Of a stretch of 64,000 bases of DNA, positions 1,895 to 64,000 are shown piece by piece (the stretch's first letter is position 1; each line of letters opens with the position of its first letter). The DNA lies in contig CAJINV010000015.1 in the NCBI GenBank assembly GCA_905178155.1, positions 62,001 to 126,000 on the forward strand, read 5' to 3'. Origin of the DNA: Amoebophrya sp. A120 (Eukaryota > Protista > Dinoflagellata). The notes under the pieces were generated by a model, which worked only from the letters and a program-made list of their open reading frames with translations, was not told the DNA's origin and did no database searches. Position numbers and translations under genes: made by a program.

Positions 1895-2959
1895 TCACGC
1901 CTGACGAAAGCGTGCGTTGAAGATCTGGTCAAACAAGTCTTCGATTGTAGTAACCTCACTCCCAATAACCACGCTGTCAACATCCGCGTCACCGCTAACC
2001 AACCTCTGCTGATTCTCGATGCCCTGGCGAACAATGCCGACCTCGTTCACCAAAAAATCCAAACTTCCGAACCAAGAGCACGCACCACTGTTTGTAGAGG
2101 ATGTTCCTGCCGGAGAAGATGTTGAACTGGAGGTCATTACACCCGACACGGCTACCTGGTTCATCTGCACTGCTTTCAGCAAATATTCGGTAGCAAAAGC
2201 AATCGGAATCTCGTTTGTGGAGGTGTAGTCCTGGTTGGCTTGCCTGGTGTAGTGCTGGAAGATTTTCCACAGCTCTTGCAGCGCGTTTTCCACCCCGATG
2301 CGGAGGAGCTCGGTCAGGAACCTGGAATGTTCAGGTTGTCATGCAGAGTTTCATTAGTTTCATGTCAATAGATGTTGAGAAACTTCCATTTTTTGTCATG
2401 CAACAGGCAACAGAAAATAAAACCACAACTCAATACGGTGTGTATGCCACCAAGTCTCCGTTTGCCCGGCCGCCGTAATACTCCAAGCAGACCTTTTATC
2501 CAAGGAAAGAAGTGTTACAGTTACACATTTGTAATGTAATTCCAGCATCACAAAGTTGCTCTGCATAGCAAAGAAAACTTGTAATGCGCAGACTACAAGG
2601 GAAAACACGCGTACAATGAGGCCGGCAAGCATTTCCTGCATGACAGAGGTTGCTCGTCTTGCTGGACATGCATCAGAGTGTGTAACTGCAACATTTTTTT
2701 CTCAGGATACCCTTTCCGCCTTCAACGCCAAAACCGAATCGAAGTGCAGCAAGTTGCTCAACACGTAGCCAATCACGTCCACCGAAACCCGCCCCTTATT
2801 CTCCTCGTCGTGTTGCTTGAAAAAGCTGTCTGCTTGCAGCAGTTGGGGCCCAATCTTCGGGTTGGAAGCGTGGAGAAAAAGCTCGAACAGGCAGTTTTGG
2901 TAGCTGGATTTCTGCTTGTGACTCTTCACCAGCTTGGTGATCACGTCTCTCGGGACCTG

Positions 2960-3000
<41 letters not shown>

Positions 3001-6000
3001 TGAGGGAGGTATTGAGGGCTTCTGCTGCGATCATGCACCATGACAAGAAGCTTCAACACCTGTCAGTGATCGAATGCAACAAGAAATCAATTTTTTTTCT
3101 TTTGTTTCGAAAAAGAGATGTTGAAGCCGCTTTAAGTCGCTTTGAATAAAATCACCTGGTTCACTATACCGTTGTTCCCTTTTCCGCATTCGTCGCAGAG
3201 CTCAACCAGGGATGCGACCGGATTTCTTCCCAAGACGGCGAGCCAAAGGCTAACAGCGCGTAGAAATCGAACGCGTATCATAAGGAAAAATCCCCCCTCC
3301 CCATACTGCAAAGGTATACTTTTTGAAATTTGTGACGCTGATTTGTGGCCACAAATCGCGTCTGTCTTGCAAGAAGGCAACTCCGCAGGCTCCGCCGCAT
3401 TGTGCAGGCGGTTTGTCCTGCTGTTGGACCTACAGCGCGGATATTTTTCATGCTAAGGGCCTAGGCCAAAACCTCTCTACTCACACTTAGTATGGGCCTG
3501 CAATGCTCTCCAGCAAGACAGCTCGGATTTGTGTACACAAATCCAGCATCAGAAATTTCGTTTCGATATGGGGAGGGGGGATTTTTCTTTTCGATAACGC
3601 GTGTGGCGAATACATGGACCAAGCCCACGTTGATGTAGTTCCTTGCCCACCGTCCGGATGATGGTCTATTACAATGAAAAATGGCCCCTCTCCATATCAA
3701 AACGGAAATCTGTGATGCAGATTTGTGGTCACAAATCAGCTTTGTGATTCTAGAAGGCAAAAGATGCGGACTGTAGTGCTGTCTAGCGTGGGAAAGGCTT
3801 GCAGCTCCAGGATGACAGGAGGCAACTGGAAGTGGGAAACAGCATGACAGATCACCTGCAATTTAGGCCGCAGCTTCGTCTCTTGGCCTTCTTGCAATAC
3901 AAATCGATTTGTGTACTCAAATACAGCATCACAAATTCGGGCATCTTCCGTTTCCGATATGGGGTGGGGGCTTTTTTCACTTTGATATGGTCTGATTGTT
4001 CACTAGACACCTCCTCGCCCGTCAATAACAGGCTCATCAGCGATGCAACGTCGTCAAAGTCGACGGAAGTAGCTCTCGATGCTGGTGAAAAGGACTCGCA
4101 GGTCGCAGGTTTACTACTGTACAGGGCATCTTCACTCGGCGTCAACCCCATCAAATACTCTAGGCCGTAGTTGACTAGCAAAATCTGCTTCCCGTTCCGG
4201 ACAAAAACATTGTCCACCGTGATTTTCCCGTGGGGCAGGTTGAAGGAATCATTCCTCACGTAGTCCAGCGTCTTCAAGATTTTGTCAATAATCCGGTACA
4301 CCGATTCTTCTTTAATTGTGCCCCCCGACTGAAACACCTTGGCCAGGTTTTCCAGCAGCGGTTCTGAGATGGAAGCGGAGGAGGATTGTTGGTTTTGCGA
4401 CGGGTGACTCGTCGTTTTCATGGTAGAAGAGGAACTGCTACCGTAATTCCCATTTCCGTAGTTTTCGTACACAAGGTAAAAATACTGGTAGTCCTCGAAA
4501 AAGTCCAACACCTGCACTAAATTCGGATGCTTCACGAAATTCGCGACAATGCTCATCTCCGCCCGAACCTGATCCCACGGCTTCTCCGCGGTTTTCAGAT
4601 TTTTGTTGATCCGCTTGCACCTCCGCTTCATCCGCAGGAACCGATTCGTGTTGCTGACGTAGCCCTTTTATGCATTGCAAAAGTATCGTATTCGTATAAA
4701 TACAATACAAGTTTCTGCAGCATGAGAAATAAAATTTGTAATGCAGATTTGGCTTAAGAAAGGGATTTGTAATGCATGATTGTAATACGAATACGATACT
4801 TTTGCACAGGATACCTTTTCGTAGCACTTGAAGTCCACCGACAATTCGTCTCTTGCTATCTATTACAGTGAAAAGTGCCCCCCACCCCTCAAATGGCAAA
4901 AATTTGTGATGCGAAGTTTCCAAATGAAACCCTTTTGTCATGCATGAAAGGAGTATGAATCTTTCTGATGCAGAGTCTAGTCGTGTATCGCATCGCTTGC
5001 ATGACAAGCGCCGCTCTTGCTGGGGTCTTTTGCAATACAAATTTTCGCTATTCACGATTGGAAACCTGTGATGCTGATAGGTGCAAGAGGGCGAATGTTT
5101 CATTTGGAAAGGTTTGCAATACAAATGCTTTCAAGTTCGGGGGTGGGGGCATTTTTCATTCTGATACTATCAACTCGAACTTCTCGAAGAAATCGTGGAT
5201 ATTTCGGTTGTTTTTCCGTGCGGTTGGATCGTCACTTGATGCGTTATTTGCATCATCGTGGTCTTCCAACGTGGATAGAGGTGACCGCAGATGCGTCATT
5301 TCGTACGTTTGGAATTCCTCCTCTGGGCTCGTGTATCAAATGTAAAAATGTCTGGGTCTGGAAGAATGCGCGATTTGTCATGCAGGTTTTCCATGACCCA
5401 GGAGGTCTGGAATGCAGGACCTAGCATGACAGATTCTGTGCGATCTCTCTCATGCCTATCCTGCATGAGAAACTCCCTCCAGACTTGATCGAAGGTGGAC
5501 AGCTTTTGGCACTCATGCAACACAGATTTTTGCATGATTCGGATTTAGCATGACAAGTTGCAATCTTCCAGACCCAGACATTTTTGCAATCCATATCGTG
5601 TCGTAGCGTAGCTGCCGGAAGCACTTGCGTGTGAAGAATTCCAGCTCCGGGAGGGATTCTATTCGATGGTTTAACATTTTGGAAGAGGAAGTTGGCTTTG
5701 TTCGTTTGGGAGCAGCAGCTCCAAGGTAAGGATGCGTTTTATTTTTACTATTGCTCGAAGTCCACCCGTCATTGCTGTAATACCGCTCTAACACCAGCCC
5801 AGTGGCCTTCTCCGCCAGTATTCTCGGGAACTTCTTCGCCGATGAGAAAGTACTGCTGCTGGAAGAAGAATTCGATTGCTGGTGATATTCTTGTTGTGTC
5901 TCATAATCATTATTCCCGAACTTCGCCTTCGCTACTAAGTACAACAATTGGAAACAGTAGTTCCCAAAATGCTCGATCTTTTGCTCCGACTGCAAAAATT

Positions 6001-9000
6001 CGACCGCGTAATTTTGGAAAAAGTCCGGATGCTTGTTATGACCCGCTCAAATCGGTTACCATCTCAAACGTTACAATAGAATCTGGATTTTGTATTGCAT
6101 GATGAGCATGACAGACCCGCACAGCGTTTCACTTTCTGCAATACAAATTTCGCCAGATTCCAGTTCGGGTTGGAGCTCCAGAACTTGTCATGCGCAATCC
6201 TGTGGGAGTAGGGTAGATCATGCACTTCTTGCATGACAGATTTCCATATTCTATTGTAACCGATTTGAGTATTGTAACGGCTGAGCGGGTTATACTGGTG
6301 CGCAGCGGACCGCGTCAGACTGTTGATCGCGTTCGCATCCGGCTTATGCATTGCAAATATGTCTGGGTCTGGAAGAATTGGAACTTGTCATGCAATTTCT
6401 GGATCGTGCAAAAATCTGTGTTGCAGGATTAGCAAAAGCTGTCCACTCTTGACCAAGTTGAGAGGCAATTTCTCATGCAGGCGAGGCATGATAGAGGTCG
6501 CACAGAATCTGTCATGCTAGGTCATGTATGACAGACCTCGCGCCTCATGGAAAACCTGCATGACAAGTCTTGCAACCTTCCAGACCCAGACACTTTTGCA
6601 ATCCATACGGCTGGGGACCACCAGTCGTGCTGGTGGGAGTAGGCTGCCTATCGATCATCCCTGGTGGTGTCGTTCCGGAATTATAGGAGGCAGCTGCGAG
6701 GGGTTTACCATGCTTCGAACGTGATATGTTGTCCTGCTCCATTTCTTCAATGCGGCTGATTTCCTGGTCCAGCAACAAACTTCCAGTGGCCCCATCCACG
6801 ACGTGGTCTTCGTAGTACAGCGTCGGGGTGGCGACGGAGGTTTTGCTAGTCGCGGCATTGTTGTTCTGGGCAGCAGCAGCAGCTGCTGCTGCTACTACAC
6901 CATTTTGCTCCGCCGCATCGTGGATGTCCTGTAGTTCGCCGTGCGTGATCGCGTGCTGCAGCGCTTCGCTCTGGAAGTGAATTTTCTCCAGATCCCCCGC
7001 CATCGCCTTGGCCAGGGCCAAGTGCTCTTTACTGACCGCATGAGCTGTTCCTCGGGCCCTCCTCTTTCTCGGGATGGCCGGGTTGTTACTGTGAGGAGAC
7101 GTCGGTGACGGATTGTTGGACGTCGCCTGGTCTACTTCTGCGCCGGGTAGTGGTACTGCGGCTGGAGCAACATCCTGTGGCAGCTCCTTTGAAGACTGGC
7201 TTTGATGTCCCTTCGAATGACTGTCGTCGTCATCTTCACTGACCATTGCTGCCCGATCTTCGGCTTTCTTCTGGTTTTGTTGCTCTGCTCTCAGCTGTTG
7301 TAACTCAGCCTCTGCTTTGTCTAGCGCCGGCTCCAGGCTGGAAACCAGACTGTCAACAACCTCCGCGTGTTTCTGACTAACCCGATTGGTCGGTTGACCT
7401 TCCAACATCGCTTCCGACGCATGGCGGTACAGGACCTCGATTTGCTCAATATGTTCCGAAACCGCAACGATGTGTGAAAGCCGCTCGTGGTTTGGTTTTT
7501 TCGGCGGTGCGACGTCCTGCTCTTTTGGTGAAGCCTGTTCGGAGGTATATGATTTGATGGAGTTCTTGTAGAATTCTGTACCCATGAGCGCAAACATGAC
7601 AATATCACAAATCATGGCGTATAGTACAATCATAAGTAATCTTCAAAATAATCAAAAAACTCTTATCACAAAATCCTATATATAATACCAACTCGCCCTC
7701 GACTTTTTTGGTCTTCCTAGCCGGCATCACTGTTTTCACCGTCAAACTGCTCTGCAACAACGGTGGTGCCTCGAGAAACGGCGAGCTAACGGAACTTGCC
7801 TTGCTATCCGACTTCGATATCCGGAGTTCCACCGGCTCCAAAGCGATCGGCTGGTGCAACACCGGCACGGGTTCTTGTGTTTGCTGCTGCTGCTGCTGTG
7901 CCGGGGATGGCTGTGATTGGTTGTTTCTCGGATCAACATTGGGCGTTGGGAGAGAGCTATTCGGAGGCTGTGGCGCAACACCTCCTCCGTACTGGTACCC
8001 AAGAGCAGCTGCTGCAGGTCCTAGCACCGCTGCACACGCCCGTGGCGACGCCACCAGTGCGACTTTGGGCGAGGTCGGCAACAACCTCTTCGGCAGCGAC
8101 ACCGCATGATCTGTGCCCTGCGGTCGCGGCGACAAATTCACCAGTTTCGTGTTCCCGCCCTCTCGGAAATCCACGACACCGCGTAAATTCTTCAAACTGG
8201 ACTTATCCTGTGCAAAAGTATCGCACTCGTAGTAATTGCAGTCATGCATTACAAATTTTTTTCTTAAGGTAAATCCGCATGACAAATTTTATTTTTTTCT
8301 CATGCTGGGGAAATTTGTAATGCATTTATACGAGTATAGTACGATACTTTTGCAGTTCAAAGGACCGGAGATTCTGCAATTCCGGACTTCGGGACCGGTA
8401 GATCCTGTCGAGCTTCTCGTCGATGTTCTGCTTTAGCTGGTCGCTGGAAAGTGCGTTTCCCTGCCTGAGCCCCAGCGGCCGCACGAGCTCGCGGCCGCGG
8501 ATCGGAAATTGGTTACTATCCACCGGCGGACGGGCCGCGAGCGTGTTGGAGGAAAGCCACAGAGTTGGATCGACCGGGATCACGTTTTCGGGTTTCAGCT
8601 TCAAAACATTCGTCCTTTTCTGTTCGGTAGAAGTTGCAGCTGGGGGTAGAGGACCTTGGCTTGCTGTTGCTGCTGCTCCTGTTGCAGCAGCTCCAGTTCC
8701 TACTTGTTGTTCTGGAGATCCACGCGTCCCTATCGGCTCCTCACCGGGCGACACTGGCGGCTTCGCTTTCACAAACTGCTGGCCCGTTGTCCCGCTGTGC
8801 GCGGACGACCCTGCAGACCGATTAGAAGAGGGCTTCGATGTTGCCACTGGTTGTTCCATCTGCTGCTCTGGAGGAGCAACCGTAGTAGTGTTCGGTAGCT
8901 GCTGCAAACCAACCATAGGTTGCAAATTCGCCAGATTTACCGGGGTCAAAAATTGCGGCACTGGGATCGTGTAAGAAGTCTGCGGCGGTTGCGATTGTCC

Positions 9001-9959: not shown

Positions 9960-11389
9960 CCGCATATCCTTCCCTCGCCCAACGTCATCCGACCCTGGTC
10001 TCCTTCTCGACTTCGCCGTAAACGGCTTTTTCAGATTATGCAAGAAAAAGACTATGTGAGTGTAAGTCTGTGATGCAGAAATTGCAAAACTGTTACACTT
10101 GTCATGCTGGATGGGCGTCATAGGCTGCTATCATACGTGTTTCCACGTACTAGCTGCACATGGCAGGTTTTCCCTGTAATGCAAAGCGAATCCCTGTAAT
10201 GCAGTGCTGCTCTTCCAAAAAAGTTACACTTACACAGTTTTTTTTCTGGATACAGATCTTGCGCAGGGGTCGTCGTATCCTTGAACAAGGTTATTCCGAC
10301 CGTTGGCATTTGCGACGGAAGCATCTGTCCCTCCTTTATCAAAATAAAAAATCCCCCCACCCCATATCAAAATGGAAATCTGTGATGCGGGATTTGTGTA
10401 CACACATCGGCTCTGTGTTGCAGTAGAGGACTGCAGCCAGGCGCACAGCCTGAGGAGGGGCGTTTTGGTGTAGGCACCTAGCAAGGCAGGCACATCCTCT
10501 ATAGGCGATACAGCATTACAAATTGCGTGCACAACGCAGCGGAGTTTCTGGAGTTGCCTTCGTGCAATACAGAGACGATTTGTGGTCACAAATCAGCATC
10601 ACAAATTTTCAGGAGTATACCTTTTTAGTATGGGGAGGGGGGATTTTTCATTTTGATATCCTTCGACCCTTGTTTATTCGCGTTCAGTGCCTTGATCATG
10701 TCAATCTCTTTCGGCACAAACAACTCCAAACTGCTTAAACTCGGGGCCACATACTGCGGACTTTGCGGAAGGTACGGCGGGTCGCGGGTCGGCCGCCCGC
10801 GGTTTTTCAACAGCGTAGTGGTGTATTTTATAAGATCTGCTGGAAGCTGTTCGTCTTCTGTAGACGCGGATTTAATATTACCGGCTCCTGACCGCTGCTG
10901 CTGATTTGGATTTCCGCGATTTGCTGGTGGCTTCTTCTTCGAAAGTCCCACACGACCTCCGGGTCTGCTTCTCTGACTATTGCTACCGGTAGTCCTGGAG
11001 GAGCTTGTTGTTCCAGCAGGGCCTGCGATTGTTCGTGGTCTAGTAAAGGAAGAACTACTGCTCGACGTTGGTCCGCCCCCCGGCGCCGCAGTTGCAGTTC
11101 TCTTTGCAGTTCTGATTGTTGCAGAGGAAACAACCGGCTGGCTCGTCGCGACGCCGCGCGCGGAGGAACCCGGAGATGTTCTAGCAGCCCCACCCCGTCC
11201 CGGCCTTGTGGAAGTTGGCATTGCGCCCGTCGTGGCCGCACTGGTTTTAATCCGGTCCGATTTCAGCTGCGGAGTCGCACGGCCGGCAACCGCCGAAGCG
11301 CCGGTGGGGCTCAGTCGACGTTGTGCCGCACTGGACAACATGGTGCCGGGTGGTTTGGCACCACTTGTGGGGATAATACGTTTGGACAT
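9960..11389 (-). CDS. Ser/Thr/Arg-rich exons, either the 5' part of the pseudokinase gene or a separate hypothetical gene
   Basis: ATG at 11389 (MSKRIIPTSG...). Frame is kept across elements 10337-10658 and 10037-10252. The link to the ORF starting at 9636 is unresolved. Confidence 0.5.
10037..10252. mobile_element. TIR introner, family E
   Basis: TAT..ATA, TSD CAGAT. Confidence 0.88.
10337..10658. mobile_element. TIR introner, family B
   Basis: TAT..ATA, TSD TCCTT. Confidence 0.9.
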
Positions 11390-23877: not shown

Positions 23878-24110
23878 GAAAAAATCTCAAAGTGTGAAGT
23901 GTATGCTCGGGAAAAAAATATCAAAGTGTGAAGTGTATGGTCGGGGAAAAAAACATCAAAATGCGAAGTGTATAGTCGGGAAAAAAATATCAAAGTGTGA
24001 AGTGTATTGTCGGGAAAGAAATATCAAAGTGCGAAGTGTATGGTCGGGAAAAAAACATCAAAGTGTGAAGCGCATGGTCGGGAAAAAAACATCAAAGTGT
24101 GAAGTGTAAC
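23878..24110. repeat. Minisatellite, ~34-bp unit, ~7 copies
   Basis: Repeated AAAAAA(T/C)ATCAAAGTG(T/C)GAAGTGTATGGTCGGG with decaying copies to ~24190. Confidence 0.9.
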
Positions 24111-39490: not shown

Positions 39491-39744
39491 CTTCGTCACA
39501 CATCATACATAGTTCACGAGAGTTCACAAAATTCACAGAATTCACAGAGTTCACAAAATTCAATCTTGATCTGAGCATCATCAATCTTACAATCATCATC
39601 TCATTCACCGAGCCACTATCTCGATCTTCAAGTCATAATCTCATTTAGAAAATCACAATCCATCATCTCGATCTCCGAATCCTTATCGCGATCTTAAAGT
39701 CGTAAATCCTTTTCGAAAGTCATAATCTTCGATCTCAGACACAA

Positions 39745-49681: not shown

Positions 49682-49890
49682 AAACATCTGTATTACCTGT
49701 AGTAGTTAGAATTTTGTCGTCCTCTTTCAAGATCCAAAATCGTCGTACTGTCAAAACACATGTTGATCGCTTTGCTCAGCGCGCTCGCCTGCGGCTGTTT
49801 CGTTGTCCGTTCGTATTCCTCGAGCTTTCTTTGCGTTCTATGCGGGACATAATGTTCGAAACGTCGACATGCGGTAGAGGGTCAAATTCA
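49682..49890. repeat. ~200-bp diverged direct repeat, copy 2
   Basis: Matches 46770-46976. Confidence 0.8.
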
Positions 49891-50362
49891 ACATAAGTAG
49901 CTGCCTCCTCATCGTTCATGTTCTAGTAGAAACAACATGCTGCATAAATGTCCTTTTTTCCGTCCTCCCGTGAGAACAAATAAGGGTCTAACACTATTAC
50001 ATGTCCGCAAATTTTTATCGAAGAGCAGTCGACTTAAGTCTCACTGTGCCGTTTTTACTCTAGAAGAACTGGCAGAGCTCCTTCTTTTCTACTTCAGTTG
50101 GGGATGGCAATGCTTGAGCGCTTGCGCGCGTTGACCGCCCAGAGACGCAACTGCGGAAAAACGCTTCTCCAGTAGTAGTGCGCTCGGGCGAAAAATCAAC
50201 GACATAATTGATGTTGTACGTACAACAGACAACTGCTTCATCTATTCAATATCCATATCGGTCATAACTACATTATCGACACCCGTGAGTCACAGTTTTA
50301 TCACTTTCGTGTTTTGTACATCGTATAATGTGCTGGCGCAGAGGGAAAAGGAAGGCCAAAAC

Positions 50363-51866
50363 TTAATCTTGTCCGTGGTCCTTTGGTGCGTGTCGGCGGT
50401 GCAGGAATGATGGTGATGAAACGCCGTGTAGTCCTGTACCACCCGCAGGCGAAGAGGTGGATGATGCTCCTGTAGTAGTGCCAGCTGTAGCACCCGACCC
50501 AGGGTAAGGGACGCTGTGTGAAGAAGAAGACGAGCTCGAGCCAGCGCCGCGCAACGCCGCATAAGAGCCTGGCCAGCAGGCGTCCATGGTTTCCTGTTCT
50601 GGCGCCGCGGCAAGAGTACTACTAGCCGGTGGAAGCGGTCTCGGGCCGAGCAGTGACGTTGTTAACAAAGCGAGTTTTTGGTTCTTATCATAGAATACTC
50701 TCCGCATCTGCTCTTTGGGGTGGTTCCTACACCCGACGGCGCAGCTTCTCCCATTATTGTACCCGTCGATGAGGTATCAAATGTAAAAATGTCTGGAAGA
50801 ATACGCGATTTGTAATGCAGGTTTTCCATGCCCCAGCATGAGGTCTGGAATGCAGGGCCTAGCATGGCAGATTCTGCGAGATCTCTAATATCATGCCTAT
50901 CCTGCATGAGAAACTCCTTGTCACCTTGGTCAAAAATGCACGGCTTTTGGTACTCATGCAACACAGATTGTTGCATGATCCAGATTTAGCATGACAAACA
51001 TGCATTCTTCCAGACCCAGACATTTTTACAGTTGATATGAGGCAGGCTTGGCTGTTTTCGAAACAAACATGTCCAGAGTAGCGCACGCAGGCTATCCCAC
51101 AGAAAAAAGCTGGCAGGTGTCATGTTTGTATTATTGTGCAGAAATTATAGGTTAGTAGAGAAAAAACCCGTTCTTGTAGTTACACGTGGAGCTGCAGCCT
51201 GCTATGGATCTGGCCATGAAGACAGATTTTCCTGCGTAGGCGTACTCATTTGGTTTTAATACACTTTGATATACATCAAACATGACCTGTTACAGCTTTT
51301 ATTTTCCGTGGGATACAACCTCCGCAACTGACCGCGTAGTCGCGCACACCCTCGCGAAACTGCTGTCGTCCGTATTCGGTGCCCAAATAGTAGTGGGTCG
51401 CGTTTCGTATCATCGTTCCCTTCTGCTCTTGTCGGTAAAAACCCTTTCCGGCCTCAATGACGTCTCCGGAGCGGCGCATCAAGTATTGCACCGCTTCATT
51501 GCATATCAAATGCAAATATGTCTGGGTCTGGAAGATTCTGAGACTTGTCATGCACGGGTTGCATGAGCCATGATGTCTGTGATGCATGCCCTAGCATCAC
51601 AGGTTTTTTGAGGGATTCTTGATGCCTATTCCGCATGACAAATGCCCTCTCCGCGTAGCAAAAATTAGAATCCTTTTGCTGCTCATGCAACACAAATTTT
51701 TTACACATCCAAACGCAACATCACAAGTTGCATTCTTCCAGACCCAGACATTTTTACATTTGATATTGCAGAAGAGGGACGTCTGGCCGGACTGAAAAGA
51801 CGCTGCTTGAGACTCCGTGCCGGTCGATAAAGCTGAAATTAAATGGATTTTTTCGTCTTATTCTGT

Positions 51867-51901
<35 letters not shown>

Positions 51902-54900
51902 TACGAGTACTACGCCGTGCGTAACTTCGTAGTCCTTTCGGGGAAAATTATTTGAGCTTATCTTGCATTCATATTTCTACTTACAACTAGTCGTGCTGCT
52001 TGTTCCCCAATCATGCACATGAACATTTGCATCAGGCGAATCCGTCTCTGTTCATCAAACAAGCGAAGCGAAAAATAAAAAAATGATTCGCACAAGTACC
52101 GCTGCTTATCTCCGCCATCATTTTTGGAAAATTCATATTCTTCCCGTTCTGCAGATTTGCCAGGCCGAACGCAATGTGCATGATTTTATAGATACTGTTG
52201 TCCAAATTGTCCCCGCTCCCGAGCATCTGCGAAACCCCCGTTAAGCGATTAGGCGTTTCCTGCAACAACGTCGCGAAAGAGACCCCAAAGCTCATGAAGG
52301 CTCTTTCCTTCAGCAACCTTTTTCGCCCCTTGTGCTCATCGTTCAAGTAGCGTGCGTATCAACTGCAAAAGTGTATGGGTCTGGAAGATTGCCAGGTTTG
52401 TCATTGCCAGGTTTGTCACCCATGACGTCTGTGATGCATGCCCTAGCATCACATCTTTTTAGAGGACTTTGTGATGCCTCTACCGCATGAGAAATTATGC
52501 CTCTCCGCGCAGCACAAACTGGAGCTGCAGTCCTCTCGCTGGTCATGCAATACAGCCTTTTTTAGAATCCAGCGACAGCATTACAAGTTTAGAATCTTCC
52601 AGACCCAGACACTTTTGCAATCCATAGTGCGATTTTGGACACCGTGTCTGACTCTAAAACGGCGTTCCGGATTCCGGCTCGGACCTATCAAAAGGAAAAA
52701 TCCCCCCACCCCATATCAGATGGGAAATCTGTGATGCAAGATTTGCATCACACAAATACGCGCTGTCTTGCAATACGGCATCGCAACCAGATCCGCAGCC
52801 TAGGGAGGGACATTTTGGTCTAGTTGCTTAGCATTGCAAACGGCTGTCCTCTAGGCCCAACAGCATGCCAAACCGCTCCCATAATGGCAGGGAAGCCTCT
52901 GCATTTGTCTTCTTGCAAGACAGACGTGATTTGTGGTCTCAAATCAGCAAGACAAATTTCCGGAAGCATGCCTTTTCGATATGGGGAGGGGGGATTTTTC
53001 CTCTCAATAGTACCGTTTTTGTGAATGTGTACCCCGTCGCTTGGTGGGTCGCGTAATCCAAAGCGGACAAAGTCGGACCCACGATGAACCCATTTGCGCT
53101 GGTATTACAATGAAAAATGCCCCCTCCCCATATCAAAACGGAAATCTGTGATGCAGATTTGTGGCCACAAATCAGCTTTGTGATGCTAGAAGGCAAAAGA
53201 TGAAGACACTGTGGTGCTGCCTAGCGTGGGAATAAACCTATGCGTCTCCAGCATGACAGGAGGCAACTAGACAAGTGGGAAACCGCATGACAGATTACCT
53301 GCAATTTATGCCGCAGCTTCGTCTCTTGGCCTTGTAGCAATACAAGTCGATTTGTGTACTCCAATACAGCATCACAAATTCGCGCATCTTCCGTTTCCGA
53401 TATGGGGTGGGGGCTTTTTTCACTATGATAGATGGCGCCCTGCATGCCGGCGATCCCGTACTGGCTGTTGAGGAAATAGATCATGACGGACCGCCATCCT
53501 ATGTAAAAACATCCCCACCCCACAGTTGTCATGCAGATTTGCAATGACAAGAACATTTGTGATGCGCATCCCGATGATGGGCATTTCCATTTTCAGTCGT
53601 GTTTTTGAATTTGTAATGCTGTAAACAGGATACGCATCTCGATTTGTAATCATGCGGCTGTGCTTGCTAACCTGCACTACACTACGGGCTGCAACTTGTC
53701 ATGCGTGGCGTCCAAAACTCCTGGATCTGTGTTGCAGAGATCCCAACTTAACTATGGGGTAGGGACATTTTTGCACAGGATAACCGCAGTCGCTCGATCT
53801 TCTTCTTCGTTCTCCTGTTGTTGATATCAACTGTAAAAATGTCTGGGTCTGGAAATTTGTGATGCTAAAATGTGCAAGAGGAGGTCACTTGCTTATGCAG
53901 GAAAGCATGACAAGGTTGCAGCACGCTTTCTCATACGAACTCCGCATGAGAAACTGCGTTTTTGTATGACAGAAGAGGCTACCACTGTTCTTGGTCATGC
54001 AATACAGATTTCACAGGAATGCAAGACCAGCATTACAAGTTCCAACTTTCCAGACCCAGACATTTTTACATTTGATAGTTGAAAATCTGGAATTTCGGGC
54101 TCACCTCGATATTTTTCTGCATATTATCGAAAACTTGGTTCAAAGCTAACGAGAGCATCGGAAACTCATTCCCGGTGCCATCCAGCACGAAGTTCAACAC
54201 CGTCGAGGTCAGCTGGTTAATACATTGCCGGATGATCATCACGTTCGCTAAATCGTCCTCGTTGCTCAAGCATCAAACGCAAATTTGACTGGGCTTGGCA
54301 ACTTGTGATACTAAAACTTGGATGATCGAAAGAAACACTTCCGAATGCAGCCCAGCATAACAACTTTCCACAACACTTCCTCATGCGCAGCCTGCATGAG
54401 AGACTGCGTTTTCGTAGGACAAAAGAGGCTGCGCCTTTGGAGGTTCTTGATCATGGATTACAGATTTCACAGGAAAAATGTACGACCAGCATTACAAGTT
54501 TGAAGTTTCCAGACCCAGCCAGAATTGCAATGCTTATCAAGGGGACGATAATCTGATCGTGCCACGACTTATCTGCCGGGTTTAGCAAATCGGAAAACGC
54601 GAATCTCTTCATCTTATGCACTGCAAATATGTCTGGGTCTGGAAACTTGTGATGCTGGGTGGCGTCTCATGATGAGGCCACAACTGCTGGCTCAGCATGA
54701 CAAGTCTCTCCGCTTCTAGGTGTTGCCTATTCTGCATCACAAACTGCGTCTCTGCATCACAATAAAATGGAGCTCTTGGGTAACGTGCATGACAGATTTA
54801 AGAGTCATGCCAGACAAGCATGACAAACATGCACTCTTCCAGACCCAGACATTTTTGCACTTGATACATCTGCGACCCAATGACGGATTTCTGTACGTAC

Positions 54901-57900
54901 TTGGCAAAAGCGTTGGCTTCCTGCATATCAAAATGAAAAGTCCCCCCTCCCCATATCAAATGGGAGATCTGTGACGCAGGATTTGTGTACAAAAATCAGC
55001 TCTGTCTTGCAATAGAGGACTGCACGCAGATACGGAGCCTGAGTTGGGCCTTTTCCGTGTAGGCGCCTAGCAAGGGAGACTTATCCCCTGCACGCCATAC
55101 AGCAGTACAAATTGCCCGCAAAACGCGGCGGAGTCTCTGGCTTTGCCTTCTCGCAATACAGAGACGATTTGTGTCCGCAAATCAGCATCAAAAATTTATT
55201 TCAGAAGTATCTCTTTTCAGTAATGGGGATGGGGGATTTTCTCTTACGCTACTGCAGTGCGGTTCTCTCCGGGTCTTTCCGTGTGGACTTCAATTCCCTT
55301 AATGCCCGGCGGTATCAACTGCAAAAATGTCTGGGTCTGGGAGGATTCGAATTTGTGCTGCGAAGTCTACATCATGAGAAAATCTGTCATGCATGGCTGG
55401 CAAAAGGCCGCGCCTTTTGTTTCCGAGAGAGGGGATTTGTCATGCGGATTAGGCATTGGAATACCCGGTCAAAATCTGTGATGCTAGAGCTTGCATGCCA
55501 GACGATCTGGCTCATGCAAAAACTGCATGACAGATCTCGCATTCTTCCAGACCCAGACATTTTACATTTGATAGTCGGTCCTCCTCCAGGTCTTTTGTTG
55601 CGTCCTTCGCGTCGGACATGATTTCCTTCCAAGCTCATCAGATGGAATCATTCCCCCTCCCGATATCGAAACGAAGTTTCTGATGCTGGATTTCAGTACA
55701 CAAATCAGGTTTGTCTTGCAGTAGAGGACTGCAGGCATATGCCAAGCCTGAGCCGAGAGGTTTTGGCGTAGGCTCCCGGCATGAAAAATGTCGACGGTGT
55801 AGGCCTAACAGCATCACAAATCGCCTCAATAGTGCGGCGGACTGTCTCAACTTGCTTTCTCGCAAGACAGACAGGATTTGTGGTCACAAATCTGCATGAC
55901 AGATTTTGAGAAGGATGCGCTTTCAATATGGGGAGGGGGGATTTTTCCTCACGATAAAGCTTCGAATACGGTCTGCGACTGTAGCGGCATGAGTAGATCC
56001 GCGTCGAGAGCGTCTTCCTCATCGTTGTTCTCTTCATCGACAATTCCACCAGCAGCCGCAGCTCGTTGCTCCCTTCTCCGCTGTCTTTCTGCGTCTCTTT
56101 CTCGCTGCAACCTTTCCACTTCCGGATCCCGGTAGATATCTCGAGTCGTCCCCGCCACCGCCTTCCCGCTGAACTTGTGCTCAAACCGAGCGAACTCGGA
56201 ACCGAAGAGCCACTTCTGCATGTAGATTAACGTTTGGAGAGTCAGTTTCAAATTCTCATACGCTAATTTCAACAGTAAGAAGGGCGACGTGATCAGCCGG
56301 AAGGCCGTGCGCTTCATGCCACCCAGAAAGGTGTCCTGCATCCAGTGTTCCCACGGCCCGAGCTGCTTAACCTCGATTTTTGGCTCTTGCTCAGGTATTA
56401 AACTTGGTTCCTCTCCTGTCGGAGGTGCTCCTGCGGATGTTGACGATGATGGTGCATTCCCGCCTGCTTCTGCGGTAGCATTAGATGGATTAATAGGGTC
56501 GTCAGCAGGGTTAGGAAGGAGGGGCTGCGTAAGCGTAGTTCCTACAGCTGGCGCCGTTGTAACGCCTTGTCCTGCAGGTGCCAGTGCCGCTTCGTCATCC
56601 GACTCCTCTTCCTCGATAACTTGAGCGCCAAAAAGCTTATCGTAAAAGCCACCGTACTATCGTATGAAAAAAGTGTTTCACTGTAAGGATTTGGCAGTTT
56701 TTGCATCACAAGTTTGTAGTTCTACATGACAAAGAAAATTTGCCATGCAAGGTTTCTAAGGGAAAACACGGCGAAAAATCCATTGTCTTGCATGCGTAGC
56801 AAGACAAATACTTCTGTGTTGCATTTTATGCATCACAAGTTTACAGTGAAACAGCTTTTTTCTTGCGATACGTACAATCTCGGGTCTTCAAAGTTGTCCA
56901 AGACCATCCGGTATGCACTGCAAAAGTATCGCACTCCTACTCGTATGAATGCATTACAAATTTTCTCAGCATGTGCATGTGAAATGAAATTTGTGATGCG
57001 GATTTACCTTCAGAAAAAGATTGGTAATGCATGATTGCAATACGAGTACGATACTTTTGCACAGGATATCCGGACCGCCTTTTCCTCCTCCAAAACGTAC
57101 AATAATTGCTTCGCCTTTTTCGAAAACATCGAGATCGCAAAGGATCATTTGTAAAAACGTCCCCACACCAGAATCAAGATGGGAAATCTGCTAGACAAAT
57201 CAGCCAGCTTTGGTCATTTGGCATGACAAGTTTCTCCTCGTAGTGTAATCCTGTTTAGGTAGTTCAGCAGCATCACAGATCTAGTATATCATGCAGATTC
57301 TAGGATCACAAATTCCAAAACAAGACTAGAAAATGCCTCTCATGGTGCTCCGCATGACAAACTTTTTTGGCATGCAGATTTGCATGACAACTTTGGCGTG
57401 GGGACGTTTTTACTCAGGATACAAACGTCACCTTCATCACCGAGAACAATCCCGGGCCCCAGCTGTATCGCGAGGAGAAATCCCCCCTCCCCGTATTGAC
57501 AAGGTGCGTTTTCGAAAATTTGCGTTGCTGATTTGTGGCCACAAATCGTCTCTGTGTTGCATGAAGACAACCCCACAGACAGCCGCCGCATTCTACAGGC
57601 GGTTTGTCATGCCGTTGTTCCTACAGCGTAGACGTCTGTCATGCGAAGCGCCTAGGCCAAAACCGGTCTACTCAGGCTTGATATGGGCCTGCAGTCCTCG
57701 CCGGCAAGACAAATCTGATTTGTGTAAAACAAATCCAGCATCAGAAACTTCGTTTTGACATGGGGAGGGGGGATTTTTCACTCTGATAACCTGACCGCCG
57801 TCCCAACCCCCCACAACCCAATCTTCAAGGCGCCAAACATCCAGGGCGACATGCCCTGCCCAAAGAACCGCAGCATGACATGAGCCAGCTCGGTCGCGTA

Positions 57901-60900
57901 TCCTATGTAAAAACGTCCCCACTCCAGAGTTGTAATGCAAATGTGCAATGACAGGAACATTTGTAATGCGCAGCGGCATGAGACGCATTACCAATCGAGT
58001 TTTGTAACTTGTAATGCTGTAAACAGGATGAGAGGGGCTTTCTCATGCGGCTTCTCTTGCCAGCCAGCAAGTTACTGCAGAGGGAAACTTGTCATGCACA
58101 GCTCCCAAAACTTGGAGATTTGTGCTGCTAGATTCCCAACTTGAGTATGGGGTGGGGACGTTTTTACTTAGGATATCGCGTCGTTGACTTGATGACCCGT
58201 CGCCTTCTCGCTAATCCACTTCGTCGCCTCGACCACGGTGAAGTCATATCAAGAAGAAAAGTCCCCCCTCCCCATATCAAAACGAAAATCTGTGATGCAG
58301 ATTTATGGTCACAAGTCAGCTTGGTCATGCTAGAAGGGAAAAGATACGGACAGTGGTGCTGCTTGGCGTGCTGGGACAGTCTTGCATCTTCAGCATGACA
58401 GGAGGCAGCTGGAAGTGGGAAACAGCATGACAAATTTCCTGCAAACGAAGCCAGAACTGCGGCGCTTGGCCTTCTAGCATTACAAGTCGATTTGTGTACT
58501 CAAATACAGCATCACAAACTTCGTTTTCGATATGGGGAGGGGCGATTCTTCCTTTTGATAAGTCGGATTCCTTAGTTAAGAGTTTGGAGATCGGCGCCGG
58601 GAGTCGTTGCAGCTTTTCCTTTATGCAGTGCAAATATCCCTGGATGTCTGGAAACCTGTGATGCTGATTTGCTGCTGATTGCAACGCTTGCTGTGGCAGC
58701 CAAGCGTGGCAAGTTTTTGAAACGCTTTCTGATGTCTAGCACGCACTACAATATATGCGTTCATGCATGACAAAGGAAGCGGCTCTTCTGCTGCGCACGC
58801 AACACAGATTTTCTAGGAATGCAAGACACACATTACAAGTTCCATCTTTCCAGCCTCGGACATATTTGCAGTTGATATCCTTGTAGTACTTTTCCCGGCG
58901 TTCTTATCGAAGAAAAAAACTGTGTTAGTGTAGGTCTCTCGGGAAAACAGCATGACAAGTTTGTCTGCCATGACAGGAAAAACTTGTCATGCGTAGATAG
59001 GACGGGAAACACGTAGTAAGCGAGCCTATCATGCATGTGGAGCATGACAAGCGTAACTGTCTTGCATTTTCTGCATCACAGACTTACACTTACACAGTTT
59101 TTTTCTTGCATAGTTCTTTCTCGGCATTTTCCTCCTTTTCGGCGAAATCCGCGGTGGATTTAATTTTATCATCCGTATTATGCATTGCAAATAGGTCTGG
59201 GTCTGGAAGAATGCAAACTTGTGATGCGCATTTCACAACACAGAAAAATCTCCCATGCATAGGCAGCAAAAGCTGCCCACTCTCTGTCACCAAAGTGGGG
59301 CCTTTGTCATGCGGATTCGGCATTGCTCAAGCTTCTCGAGATCTGTGATGCTAGAGCTTCCATGCCAGACCTTCTGTGTCATGCAAAAGCAGCATGACTC
59401 TTCCAGACCCAGACATATTTGCATTTGATACGTATCGAGCAGGTACTTTAACTTTTCCATCACTTTGTCAACCGTTTTGGAAACTATCCGGTCGACTCTC
59501 TCGACCAGATCCTTTTGTACTCCCTCATCCGCAAACCGCGCCAAGTGCTTGATTTTATTCGAACTTTTCACCGCTGATTGCACTTTTTCGAAAATTTGGT
59601 GCTCCCAGGCCTCGATCTGCTTGTGAGTCGAATCCCGTAACGCGGACGATTGAAACGCAACCGTCTCCCACACGTCGCATCCGGAATTTATCAGTTCCTC
59701 GGCGTGCTTTTTGTTCGCCCGGATCTTTTCAAAAATGAAGCCGAAGCGCGAATCTTTTTTGGTGATTTCCGAGAAGATTTTCGTGGACAATTTGCTCACA
59801 ATCTCGTGCTCAATTTCGTCCAACACAGCCCCTTGGGCGGCGTTGGTGAAGAACAAATTCACTTTCGCCGTCATGTCTCTGTCTTTGTCCGCAATCGAAC
59901 CCCACCCGTCGTTGATGGCCACGGCGACACTCGTATCATTTGTAAAAACGTCCCTACCCCATAGTTGTAGTGCAAATCTGCATGCTGAGAATATTTCTCA
60001 TGCGGAGCGCCCCATGGGAAGCATTTCTTAGCCGTGTTTTGGAATAATTTGTCATGCTCGGGGCAGCATTATATGCTAGATCTGTGATGCTGCTGCACCA
60101 CCTAAACAGCACCACACTACAGGGCCAAACTTGTCATGCGCAACAGCCACAGCTGGTTGATTTGTCTAGCAGATTTCCCATTTTGACTTTGGTGCGGGGA
60201 CGTAGTTTTTACTCTGGATAACTCGCCATCACCTGCATGCCCTCGGGCGAACTTGGGAGACAGGAATCCCGCACGTTGTTCAACGCTTGCTGCAGCTCAT
60301 TGCTCATCTCGCAGTGCATCTGCTGCGCTTTTTTCTTCCAGGCATTCGCTTTTTTCCCGAGCATGAGCTCATTGAATCGGTCGGGGTCGATCCAGGTTTT
60401 TAAATTCTCCAGCAAAATCGACCTCGCCTGATTCGCATACGGGTTGGCCGAGGCGAACAGAACCGCGAGAATTTTCTGCAAATAATTCCGCAACTCCCAA
60501 ATCGCGTTGAAGTCGATCTGCGTAAACTCGCAAAACCTCGTCTTCAGCCAGTGCCACAGGTCCCCGAGACCGAGTTTTTTCCCGACTTTCTGGAAAAAAC
60601 CCCCAACCGCAATCGCCGTCTCCTTCACCTTCTTGCCAATCGCGACCACAGCTTGCGAAATCTTGGATTGGAAAACGGACACTTGCTGCTCCTTCTTCGG
60701 TTCTTCTTTCTTCGGAACTATAGTTGGGTCCTTTATTGGAGGCTTTTTGCACTTGGCATTGTCAGCGCCAGACCCACGAATACTGTTCTTGAACTTTGTC
60801 AAAAACTTGTTGAAAAACCAGCTGTAGGTCGGATCTAACCGTAATTCTTCCATCTCAATCACGGCCTGCGTCATCTGGACCAAGGTGACAATCACCCGGT

Positions 60901-63900
60901 GTGGGAGCTCTTCCCGAACTTGGTGTAAAACAGACGGGTCGTGGAAAAGCAGCGACATAAAGTCACCGTTTGCCGCACGCTGGAGGGTTTTGTGCATTGC
61001 GTCCTTGTCGACCGTAAGTTTTTTCTGGATCTGCGGCAAAAGGCCTGTGTTGGGGGGGCGTTCAGTTTTGCAGATTTTGCATGACAAGTTGAATGAATGT
61101 TCGCAGTGCAGTACTTTTTCAAAGTTTGCCTGTTCTTTCCCTCGCTGGCGAAGGCGCACTAACAAACCAGATGTTAGTTGTACAGCAGAAGCAGTTTGAA
61201 AAGGTCATGTGCGAAAATTTGAGAAGCAAACCACACGAACATACTCACAGCATTCATTTCAAATACCAACTTCCACGGAAGGTGGCGCCGTACTGCCAGA
61301 ACTGTTAGCGGCCGTACCATTGGTCGCCTGCCCATCGCCGGGCCCACTGCCGGTTCCCCCTTGCTCTTTCTTCTCGCCCTTTGTCCAGGGAGGCCAGTAG
61401 CTCGAAATCACATACAATTTTGTTACGGAATTGATCACTTTGGAGAAGTCCTGTTTCATTCGCGTCACGGGCCTGTGGTCCATGCTCCCCTCGACCCGCT
61501 CCTCGCTTCGCAGTACGGACTGGAAGCCGAATACTTCCGCGATATAACCCATCTCCTTCCCCCACTTGAAATGGTCTTCCAACGGGCAATGAACCCCGCA
61601 TTTCGTGAGCCCGGCATCCACGAATTTGGCCCCCTCGAACGCCACGCCGACCGTGCTGCCCGTCGCGAAGGCCATCGCCATCGGGGCGGCGTGCTGGTAC
61701 GCCAGGTCGGCTGCTTCTTTCAGGTTTTTCATCACATCTTGCATGGATTTTTTATTGTCAAAGTTGACTCGGTTGCTGCGGATGTGCGGCTGGGTCCTTC
61801 GCTGGGATCGCGGTTGAGAGGAGGAGGGGCCTGAGATTTGAAGAAGATTATGCACAGGTCCTTTTCGAGCTTTTGCATGACAATCGGATAATTTGATGAG
61901 GCACAGATCATCTTTGGGGTTTATTTCGTCTGTCGCATAGTAAAGTTCCAAATCTTGTTTCTCGGTCCCAGAAAAAATTTCTGAACGACATAAATAGAAA
62001 ACGCAAAACTGACCAGACAGTTGTACCAGCATCTCCCCCCGCAGCACCCGGCTGCCCAAACGTTCTCCCAGCCGCTCCGGAGCTTGGCGCCGGAAGATCC
62101 GCGGCACTTTGTGGCCCGAAAGACATCGGCACCCCCGGCTGGTAACTCGCGGCCTCTTGGTACAACTCTTCTTTAGTTGTGCTGCCCAGCTTTTTGTCTA
62201 CACTTTGCGCCGCTCCTTTCAGGTCACCAATATTCACTTCTTGGATTAAATACTGGAAATCTTCCATTTCTAGCTCCGACAGTTGATCTCTATTCTCGTG
62301 AATCAGATCTGCCATCATGACGCCGAATTCAGCTTCTTCCAGGAGCTCCTCGCCCGAGCGGCAATCCTGTTCGCATATGCATTGCAAATATGTCTGGGTC
62401 TGGAAACTTGTGATGCAAGTCCCTAAACAATAAGTGCTCTCCTGTAATGCGCCACCAAGCATGACAAGTTTTTTCGTGCTTCTGTGCTGCGTACTTCGCA
62501 TGAGCAACTTCGCTTTTGTATGACAGGCAAGAGGGCCTCTACTTGGTGGCCACGCAATACAGAGTGCAGAGTCATGCCAGCCTAGCATGACAAATCTCAA
62601 AATCTTCCAGACCCAGACACTTTTACATTTGATATCGCAGTTCGCATTGCCAATCTGGTCCATCGCATCCACCCGGTCTTGGTACTGCTGCTTTCGCACC
62701 TCAGATAAAAAGAACTCGTCACTCGCCAGATTTTCCAAGTTCTGGCCAGCATCTTGTTGCTGTTCTTTTTCCATTTCTCTCTCCACAACGTTCGTCACGG
62801 TCTCGACCTGTTTCTCGCTCCAGTAACTCTTAAAAAACCCGCCCACGCGCTTCAAAGACCGAATGCCTTGAAAAAATTTTTGCTTCATGCGGCACATGAA
62901 CCCCGGTTTTTGGTCTCGTTGTGACGATGATGTTGATGTGGTCCCAGAGGCTCGAAAAGATCCACTGGGAGCGCCGCCGGCCGTGGTGAGCAGGGCTTGT
63001 TGCATCAAATCCGCTTGAGGACCCGCTTGCGCTTCGGAAGTAGAACCAGGAGGACTATCACCAGCAGCGTTCGTCGTGTGCTGCCATTTGTCCTTCTTCC
63101 GGCCCTTCAATTGCTGCTCCCACACGTTCGCTTGGTCGCAGTTCACGGCTTTGAAGTCCCAGGAAACGTACTTGATCTTATTGCTGGGAGGCGGCTCAGA
63201 AGAAGCCCCCTTAGTAGATGAAGTTTTCCCGAGGGCGCGCCCAGTACTCACGAACGCCGTCGCCCTCGCAGAGCGTCGCTCGCGCTCGGTTTTCGGGATT
63301 TCAACGGGTGGGTAGAAAATTGCTTCACCTTGACCGACTGTGCTTGCGCGCAGGTTGCCCTCTGTACCTGCTTGTCCTTCCATGAAAATGTCTTCACCGG
63401 CACCTCCACTATCCGCGTCTCTGTAATTTTCTGGCGCATCATTATTCGGTTGGATCCGTGACCCGTAATCCCAGGCAGAAATGCGCACAACGCACTGGTC
63501 TCGGGCTCGCCCGGACAAGATTTCCACGTGGGTGTCATGCTCCAGAAAGATACGGAAGGGGTGCTGCTTCGCTTTTTGAATCTCCCAATAGTTTCTCATA
63601 TCAAAATCGAATTGGTTCTCAAAATTGAACACGAGCTGGTTCTGAATCAGTTCGGCATTCACTGTGTTCAGCAATTTCGACGGCTTTAAAAAGTTGCTTT
63701 CACCCTTTTTGCCCCCCGCGTTATCCTGCGTTTTGAAGATCTGCGGAAGCCCTTTTTTGATGAGTTTCGCCATCCCTGCCAGAACACCAGAACTGGTAGA
63801 AGCCGATGCATTATCATAATCTTCTTGATCGCTGGAGGCGTCTTCGAAGCGTCTGTCCTCTTCTTCCTGCATCATTTGCGCTTTTTCCTCTTCCCACTTT

Positions 63901-64000
63901 TTCTGCAATATCAGCCGCTGTCTGTCTTTCTCGTCCTTCCACGCTTGTGGCAGCGAGCCGCTTATGAATTGCAAAAGTATCGTACTCGTACTAATTGCAA
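50363..64000 (-). CDS. Very large multi-exon hypothetical protein, 5' end beyond the window (possible PH-like and EF-like segments)
   Basis: One frame traced by hand from 63962 to the stop at 50363 across 24 complete elements (+5 nt each) and GT-AG introns 61981-62026, 61159-61266 and 51833-52099. Domain guesses are weak. Confidence 0.8.
50775..51037. mobile_element. TIR introner, family A
   Basis: TAT..ATA, TSD TGAGG; left TIR lacks one GTCTGG unit. Confidence 0.9.
51093..51315. mobile_element. Diverged TIR introner, family E-like
   Basis: TATCCCAC..GTGGGATA, flanks CAGGC/CAACC. Confidence 0.75.
51504..51765. mobile_element. TIR introner, family A
   Basis: TAT..ATA, TSD TTGCA. Confidence 0.9.
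51833..52099 (-). other. Canonical GT-AG intron containing an (ATC)n microsatellite
   Basis: G|GTACTT...TTTCAG|CT keeps the frame. Confidence 0.7.
51867..51901. repeat. (GAT)n microsatellite
   Basis: About 11 GAT units inside a canonical intron. Confidence 0.95.
52357..52626. mobile_element. TIR introner, family A
   Basis: TAT..ATA, TSD GTGCG. Confidence 0.9.
52686..53009. mobile_element. TIR introner, family B
   Basis: TAT..ATA, flanks GGACC/GTACC. Confidence 0.9.
53103..53430. mobile_element. TIR introner, family B
   Basis: TAT..ATA, flanks GCTGG/GATGG. Confidence 0.9.
53495..53782. mobile_element. TIR introner, family C
   Basis: CAT..ATA, TSD ACCGC. Confidence 0.88.
53825..54077. mobile_element. 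TIR introner, family A
   Basis: TAT..ATA, TSD GTTGA. Confidence 0.9.
54271..54536. mobile_element. Diverged TIR introner, family A
   Basis: CAT..TTA, TSD TCAAG intact. Confidence 0.8.
54615..54866. mobile_element. TIR introner, family A
   Basis: TAT..ATA, TSD CATCT. Confidence 0.9.
54926..55251. mobile_element. TIR introner, family B
   Basis: TAT..CTA, TSD CTGCA. Confidence 0.88.
55313..55573. mobile_element. TIR introner, family A
   Basis: TAT..ATA, flanks GGCGG/GTCGG. Confidence 0.9.
55636..55956. mobile_element. TIR introner, family B
   Basis: CAT..ATA, TSD AAGCT. Confidence 0.88.
56658..56870. mobile_element. TIR introner, family E
   Basis: TAT..ATA, TSD CGTAC. Confidence 0.9.
56912..57068. 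mobile_element. TIR introner, family D
   Basis: TAT..ATA, TSD TCCGG. Confidence 0.9.
57143..57421. mobile_element. TIR introner, family C
   Basis: GAT..ATA, flanks CAAAG/CAAAC. Confidence 0.88.
57466..57788. mobile_element. TIR introner, family B
   Basis: TAT..ATA, flanks AGCTG/ACCTG. Confidence 0.9.
57899..58175. mobile_element. TIR introner, family C
   Basis: TAT..ATA, TSD TCGCG. Confidence 0.9.
58247..58560. mobile_element. TIR introner, family B
   Basis: TAT..ATA, flanks AGTCA/AGTCG. Confidence 0.9.
58622..58877. mobile_element. TIR introner, family A (diverged)
   Basis: TAT..ATA, TSD TCCTT. Confidence 0.88.
58905..59112. mobile_element. TIR introner, family E
   Basis: TAT..ATA, TSD GTTCT. 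Confidence 0.9.
59179..59430. mobile_element. TIR introner, family A
   Basis: TAT..ATA, TSD CGTAT. Confidence 0.9.
59934..60220. mobile_element. TIR introner, family C
   Basis: TAT..ATA, TSD ACTCG. Confidence 0.9.
61159..61266 (-). other. Canonical GT-AG intron with CTAAC branch-like motif
   Basis: G|GTATTT...CTAAC...TGTTAG|TG keeps the frame. Confidence 0.8.
61981..62026 (-). other. Short 46-nt canonical GT-AG intron
   Basis: G|GTACAA...GTTCAG|AA joins ORFs 61908-63974 and 61259-62107. Confidence 0.7.
62376..62634. mobile_element. TIR introner, family A (in frame, stop-free on the sense strand)
   Basis: TAT..ATA, TSD TCGCA. Confidence 0.9.
63963..64000. mobile_element. TIR introner, family D, truncated by window edge
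   Basis: TATGAATTGCAAAAGTATCGTACTCGTA terminus. Confidence 0.8.

Follow-up and report, generated by a model that had tools for sequence, protein, structure and literature searches.

The introners of the dinoflagellate Amoebophrya sp. A120 were described by Farhat et al. in 2021 (PMC7789003) as 29,850 non-canonical copies of about 240 nt, supported by RNA sequencing (RNA-seq). The ends reported there consist of TAT, seven nucleotides and AAA, with a predicted hairpin and direct repeats of 3 to 5 nt (5 bp in the legend of Fig. S19), and the intron border is given as "unknown" (Fig. 3 legend). The same report has U1 undetected in A120 and the other small nuclear RNAs present, and another Amoebophrya strain is described with U1 and mainly GT-AG introns (bioRxiv 10.1101/2024.09.05.611473). 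More recently, Gozashti et al. 2025 (PMC12130899) listed an A120 family, family 38, as "5-bp TSD, TA/TA Termini" (TSD, target site duplication) and as terminal inverted repeat (TIR) DNA / Ginger, about 810 bp long and with open reading frames (ORFs) resembling Copia/Gypsy sequences. For the tens of thousands of introns without GT-AG ends in an organism with no detected U1, this literature leaves the mechanism of removal open. Here, we analyzed 64 kb of the A120 genome (contig CAJINV010000015.1, positions 62,001 to 126,000; hereafter the window), where 59 complete elements with TAT...ATA ends mostly interrupt long frames, and the 24 of them spanned by a probable RNA contig are lost from it as the element plus one copy of its flanking repeat.

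These elements are introner elements of Amoebophrya A120. PMC7789003 already covers the same organism, the TAT ends, the 5-bp repeats and the validation by RNA-seq, so the class was known, and between our elements and those described there we see no difference of kind in ends, repeats or removal from RNA. The original prediction, made from the sequence alone, had guessed at Amoebophrya introners, and both the match to that description and two deposited proteins named Amoebophrya sp. A120 (P0001 and P0003), 100% identical to window exons, bear it out.

Combining a terminus profile, self-BLAST and a relaxed scan, we found the complete elements between 2497 and 62634, with sizes of 142 to 328 nt and a joint length of 15.6 kb (24% of the window). 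Four or five worn or cut-off copies bring the overall number to about 63 to 64, near the "about 65" first proposed. Pairs of TAT...ATA ends with an exact 5-bp flanking repeat occur 49 times in the window versus 6 to 15 times in 10 block shuffles. Among the 59 elements the repeat is exact in 44, matches at four of five positions in 13 and at three of five in 2, and it is as variable as had been claimed, with 56 distinct 5-mers. It is important to consider that the window catalog was filtered on this repeat; the unbiased test comes from metagenome contigs scanned with the terminus pattern, which gave 136 loci (411 kb) and 316 distinct elements called from their termini alone. There, the exact repeat is 5 bp long in 245 elements, 4 bp in one and 6 bp in one.

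The window elements fall into five multicopy families (19, 15, 7, 6, and 4 copies) and eight singletons, which fits the "at least six families" of the original prediction. All five multicopy families occur in both orientations relative to the transcript, and their copies in other loci reach 97.5% identity. In the terminus profiles the inverted repeat reads TAT, seven variable bases and AAA, and the terminal repeats are predicted to pair (mean probability of at least 0.5) in 57 of the 59 window elements. The elements are thus short, non-coding, bounded by TIRs and by a TSD of fixed length, and present in many copies, the traits of miniature inverted-repeat transposable elements (MITEs). No insertion target preference was detected, and an Rfam search of the window returned no matches.

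The host frames, all on the minus strand, require the elements to be removed. Taking out element length plus 5 places 57 of the 59 inside minus-strand frames of at least 200 amino acids (aa; longest, 1205 aa), as expected from the earlier claim that deleting the element and one repeat restores the frame. When length plus 3, 4, 6 or 7 is removed instead, 23 to 35 of the 59 lie in such frames, and with length plus 2 or 8, which keep the same frame as plus 5, 55 do. At the kinase locus (2497..6607, minus strand), an 855-aa frame with a Pfam Pkinase match opens across seven of the eight elements after removal. All six spliced junction peptides of the DSD1-like gene are present in P0003; the DSD1-like protein carries PF14031, and its alignment to an independent homolog continues across the junctions. 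Similarly, P0001 contains four of five junction peptides, the fifth (31994) lying beyond the end of that partial protein. The four motifs quoted in the original prediction (VLNDAFHI, GNYLFFDQMQ, HIDHQN-KRNFY, and RFSLIFY) are all found in the in silico spliced frames, and its Beclin and DSD1 labels agree with Pfam (APG6 matches and PF14031, respectively). The name "oxygenase" for the frame with the last two motifs found no Pfam support and is tentative.

Direct evidence for removal comes from X3, a run of contigs whose RNA nature we judged from the GT-AG introns that it skips; this is a guess, as the nature of the run is not on record. One X3 contig of 7,932 nt spans 49814 to beyond 62999, and because ordinary introns are also absent from it, we read it as spliced cDNA. 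All 24 elements that it spans are missing, each as element length plus 5, 15 of them seen directly and 9 through sums of record lengths. Among the 15 X3 joints listed, 14 are element joints, all skipping length plus 5, and the remaining one is a GT-AG intron; a further direct element joint is 60221/59928. The nine other removals fit the record coordinates exactly, with sums of 51, 39, and 205 nt and of 345 nt, the last being 541 minus a 196-nt GT-AG intron. The evidence supports splicing of the elements from RNA at non-GT-AG sites as the element and one repeat copy, with the gap of length plus 5 that had been foreseen. In contigs of X1, a DNA-like run, which match the window without differences, the 61045-61266 intron is kept and elements are entered from both flanks. 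The earlier alternative of excision from RNA or from DNA is therefore supported in its first branch and disfavored in its second.

The same contig joins four open frames across the 24 elements and three ordinary introns within 49814-63998 (minus strand), which is probably a single large gene; a contig alone is no proof of one transcript, and none of the exons scanned had a Pfam match. An RNA run, X16, contributed 84 reads, all partial, all in element-bearing bins and with no junctions. In 68 X16 reads at 50950-50997, a single foreign flank is attached to a family-1-like segment, and the window exons have no reads; this is a related element kept in the transcript of a different strain or locus.

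Because the cut position is hidden at perfect repeats, only imperfect repeats locate the cuts. At the 15 imperfect-repeat sites of the window we asked for k, which counts how many bases of the transcript-upstream repeat copy are kept. This copy was kept in mRNA at all nine informative sites, six in the X3 contig and three in P0001. In X3, k is 4 to 5 at 52686, 53103, and 55313 and 3 to 5 at 51093; it is also 4 to 5 at 57466, where the X3 piece begins at 57789 and no extra letters intervene, and at least 1 at 57143, where the piece ends at 57137. The P0001 residues are those predicted by the upstream-copy rule, with k of at least 2 at 34261, at least 3 at 32697, and at least 4 at 32249. With the upstream copy retained, the element is cut on its 5' side either at TAT or 1 nt ahead of it, and on its 3' side 4 to 5 nt past ATA. 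Consequently, the intron is a predicted hairpin with a 5' arm of 0 to 1 nt and a 3' tail of 4 to 5 nt. GT-AG options of the same length exist at 51093 and 52686, by cutting after the first repeat base (k = 1), and at 57466 (k = 3); the X3 joints refute the first two, and the contig rules out the third as well.

To describe the ends more widely, we oriented 163 elements, the 59 of the window and 104 of the 316 locus elements whose direction could be read from open frames. In this set there was no enrichment of G before TAT or of AG at either 3' register (P = 0.40, 0.55, and 0.76), GT-AG ends occurred six times at k = 4 and never at k = 5, and the elements do not have the GT...AG ends by which U2-type introns are recognized. 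Between the two registers, we lean modestly toward k = 4, that is, N|TAT...ATA-NNNN, over k = 5, on weak hints. All three ordinary introns begin with GTA. The first T of the element in RNA deviates in 1 of 163 cases, and the base that mirrors it does so in 8 of 163 (P = 0.039, for one of 16 positions and uncorrected). Finally, one site of a metagenome locus (L057) yields S instead of W at a position where two distant homologs have T and V. The sole mismatch at repeat position 5 in the window (25508) was synonymous in the protein test, and a homolog search with another locus (L047) matched only the unspliced ORF of the contig itself.

A second feature shared by the elements is an internal motif. 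The density of TGTNATGC or its complement is 11.3 per kb for elements, compared with 0.16 for coding DNA and 0.83 for other DNA, and TGT[CGA]ATGC is present in 336 of 348 elements versus 5 to 17 in 20 shuffles, within the consensus AAAYYTGT[CGA]ATGC. Successive copies in the same direction are mostly 31 to 33 nt apart (72, 47, and 44 pairs), a spacing that ranks top in each of the five families. The motif faces inward from both element ends and has no clear RNA-strand bias (255 versus 221). A role as branch point is disfavored by this lack of strand bias and by the symmetric placement. Judged from sequence patterns, the arrays are likely DNA-binding sites of a shared transposase, repeated at about three turns of DNA (31 to 33 bp); an RNA or chromatin role is also conceivable. 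As the motif is common to families that otherwise cannot be aligned, it could serve as bait for the missing transposase.

Taken together, we consider it fairly probable that the A120 introners are spread in trans by a transposase and are lost from RNA as length plus 5 through cuts set by the hairpin rather than by GT/AG. An integrase-like DDE transposase of the Ginger/IS3EU type, acting in trans, would insert TAT...ATA elements in either orientation with a 5-bp stagger. In the pre-mRNA the inverted repeats are predicted to pair, and the upstream repeat copy would then stay in the mRNA, as seen at the nine informative sites. The cut would fall at N|TAT...ATA-NNNN, with the first T of the element acting as the U of GU. 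As for the catalyst, a relaxed major spliceosome lacking U1 seems to us slightly better than an even bet. The cuts lie a constant distance away from the predicted hairpin, which would open the splicing machinery to testing.

Several points weigh against this explanation. A transposase turned up neither in the window nor in the 411 kb of related loci, and Farhat et al. likewise found none in A120 and rejected a general mobilization by transposase (PMC7789003). The IS3EU and GingerRoot elements make 6-bp repeats, not 5-bp ones (PMC10045372). Copies of the motif are also present in two of the three ordinary introns, and other non-coding DNA has them at about five times the coding rate. Only 9 of 163 elements carry CTRAY within their final 60 nt, and the spliceosomal step is putative. 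The RNA status of X3 is guessed, and X3 is a single run of contigs, which drop rare forms. Regarding the register, 2 of the 15 imperfect-repeat sites were synonymous in the protein test and 4 lie outside the count, the three P0001 cases come from gene models and not from reads, and the hints for k = 4 are weak. In the search for a transposase, 12 long candidates stood out among the locus elements, and of the 8 examined, none of which had a recognizable transposase, several were chance pairings of neighboring elements and several were elements with inserted non-coding DNA. One of them (L068:476-2934) has family-1 ends and an exact 5-bp repeat that enclose about 2.2 kb of other DNA, with a 415-aa frame that had no Pfam or atlas match; rather than an autonomous copy, it is more likely an element that received an insertion. 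Among the 136 metagenome loci, there was no orthologous locus in which to look for an empty site.

The rival that survives best, although we hold it to be doubtful, is a structure-reading nuclease and ligase independent of the spliceosome, whose cuts would fall at the base of the hairpin and 5 nt farther on, a mechanism proposed for the nonconventional introns of euglenids. It would account for GT/AG being unselected and available GT-AG pairs ignored, for the scarcity of canonical branch motifs and for removal in both element orientations. Furthermore, the nonconventional introns of Euglena also have paired ends and a longer 3' spacer (5'-N3CDG...CH'GN5-6; PMC12501133) and are released as circles (PMC11282704). 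On the contrary, A120 retains nearly all spliceosomal proteins together with U2, U4, U5, and U6 (PMC7789003), tunicates are reported to relax GT/AG within the spliceosome, and with a cut 1 nt early the elements would begin in a way resembling the three ordinary introns, which start with GTA. A bolder form of the same idea, to which we give only tentative credence, is a second splicing code that ignores sequence: a separate machine would use the hairpin as a ruler, cutting at the base of the stem and again a constant 5 nt farther on. If so, the 5 nt would equal the stagger of the integrase-like transposase, any insertion would be repaired in RNA whatever its site or orientation, and a single protein specific to the elements would be drawn to the TGT[CGA]ATGC arrays, to serve in jumping and possibly also in splicing.

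Stage-specific excision from DNA, which would leave a transcribed genome without elements, has a precedent in the internal eliminated sequences of ciliates. The symmetric, DNA-type ends and the motif spaced at helical turns would suit it, X1 and X3 may stem from different life stages, and contigs drop rare variants. We nevertheless regard it as very improbable, given that X1 contigs enter elements from both flanks and that the transcript-upstream copy is kept whichever way the element is oriented (family 2: 52686 and 53103 versus 57466), unlike what a symmetric DNA cut would give, with the limit that all genes lie on one strand. Least credible of all are gaps left by template switches of reverse transcriptase, for which a hairpin with a direct repeat is the usual substrate and to which cDNA-derived evidence is exposed, since the proteins require the removal (57 of 59 elements are in long frames only after it), the DSD1-like protein follows its independent homolog across the junctions, all 24 elements are missing from one contig, and template switching across the 5-bp repeat would be expected to retain the downstream copy, opposite to what is observed.

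For the favored explanation, hairpin-set removal of transposase-spread introners, the value of the fixed register is that it narrows the mechanism and defines precisely which substrates to use in minigene tests and in tests of lariats versus circles. It should also correct gene models whose junctions slid to the nearest GT/AG.

The positions of all elements, worn copies and ordinary introns are given in Table 1. Among the worn copies, the one at 29947-30191 may represent a conversion into an ordinary intron, to judge from its end sequences in the register that we favor.

Table 1. Introner elements, worn copies and ordinary introns of the window (positions in nt of the 64-kb stretch)
Feature	Position	Strand	Remark
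Eight elements in and just downstream of the protein-kinase frame	2497-2709, 3276-3596, 3667-3987, 4669-4813, 4861-5166, 5334-5595, 6037-6294, 6345-6607	-	
Three elements, 631-aa and 341-aa spliced frames	8204-8361, 10037-10252, 10337-10658	-	
Three elements, Beclin/Atg6 gene	12818-13026, 13075-13336, 13447-13694	-	Pfam APG6 and APG6_N matches
Three elements	17458-17737, 22751-23071, 23127-23447	-	
Six elements, DSD1-like (PF14031) gene	25118-25439, 25508-25769, 25863-26183, 26220-26481, 26508-26824, 27700-27935	-	Junction peptides in P0003
Single element, singleton family	29697-29916	-	
Five elements, gene of P0001	31994-32198, 32249-32390, 32697-32974, 33143-33421, 34261-34471	-	Imperfect repeats at three
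Six elements, 326-aa spliced frame	43413-43681, 43766-44044, 44132-44395, 44454-44715, 44837-45087, 45174-45493	-	
X3-contig elements 1 to 8 of 24	50775-51037, 51093-51315, 51504-51765, 52357-52626, 52686-53009, 53103-53430, 53495-53782, 53825-54077	-	
X3-contig elements 9 to 16 of 24	54271-54536, 54615-54866, 54926-55251, 55313-55573, 55636-55956, 56658-56870, 56912-57068, 57143-57421	-	
X3-contig elements 17 to 24 of 24	57466-57788, 57899-58175, 58247-58560, 58622-58877, 58905-59112, 59179-59430, 59934-60220, 62376-62634	-	
Ordinary GT-AG intron	51833-52099	-	Removed in the same X3 contig; control marking spliced cDNA
Ordinary GT-AG intron	61045-61266	-	Absent from X3 contig, present in X1 contig 60160-62401; one TGTCATGC inside
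Ordinary GT-AG intron, 196 nt	61831-62026	-	Inferred from record-length sum; one TGTCATGC inside
Worn family-2 copy, eroded ends	21671-21976	Unassigned	Matches the 26508 element at 74% identity across 293 nt
Worn copy	29947-30191	-	Ends GTATG...ACAG, register 1 nt before TAT and 4 nt after repeat end
Worn copy, one end still alignable	16381-16585		
Lone element end	29034		
Element left end (family-5-like start) cut by window edge	63963-64000		

Outside the elements, the region 37200-43400 is element-free and has no long minus-strand frame. It contains two duplications (38124-38918 versus 42529-43316, 74%; 37675-38118 versus 38923-39337, 81%) and tandem arrays, including three copies of 207 nt at 39745-40373, and possibly consists of decayed repeats. 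Another tandem array, at 23879-24108 (6.7 copies of 34 nt), has in its unit a TATGGTCGGGAAAAAA stretch resembling an element end. A non-element sequence of 185 nt at 30442-30626 is 97% identical to L015:3372-3556, which lies inside a lengthened family-3 element of a metagenome locus; it is either a second small mobile unit or captured DNA. Lastly, positions 1-900 are GC rich (69% in the first kb versus 41 to 55% elsewhere), with no element and no Rfam match.

Compared with the families already cataloged in A120, the window elements resemble family 38, known here by its description only, in their 5-bp TSD, TA/TA termini and terminal inverted repeats, and differ from it (about 810 bp, with ORFs) in being 142 to 328 nt long and without ORFs (PMC12130899). 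Splice-site calls and modes vary by family in that work, among 41 of 58 A120 rows, whereas our data give one register. Term searches of the main text of PMC7789003 returned no internal motif, and neither the fixed register nor the shared motif was found in the literature searched, a scope that leaves aside figures and two supplement files of PMC12130899. Like IS3EU and GingerRoot, whose transposases are integrase related (PMC10045372), the elements have TA..TA termini; unlike them, with their usual 6-bp repeat, the repeat here is 5 bp (exact 6-bp in 1 of 316). The elements are thus not members of IS3EU/GingerRoot, since they lack the 6-bp TSD of that group, and the likeness stands as a lead on how they work.

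Among introns of transposon origin, those derived from MITEs in the tunicate Fritillaria also do not follow the GT-AG rule and have been reported to be spliceosomal (PMC11282704), but they prefer AG-AC and AG-AT ends, while no end dinucleotide is selected in the A120 elements. Closer still are the nonconventional introns of euglenids, an unrelated lineage, which share with our elements paired ends, the lack of GT-AG, direct repeats at the junction, a longer 3' spacer and a probable MITE origin (PMC12501133, PMC11282704). In the published descriptions theirs have a CAG/CTG core with spacers of 3 and 5 to 6 nt, compared with TAT/ATA and 0 to 1 and 4 to 5 nt here, and circles are reported for theirs. 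By this analogy, we regard the nonconventional introns of Euglena as the closest functional analogue of the A120 introners.

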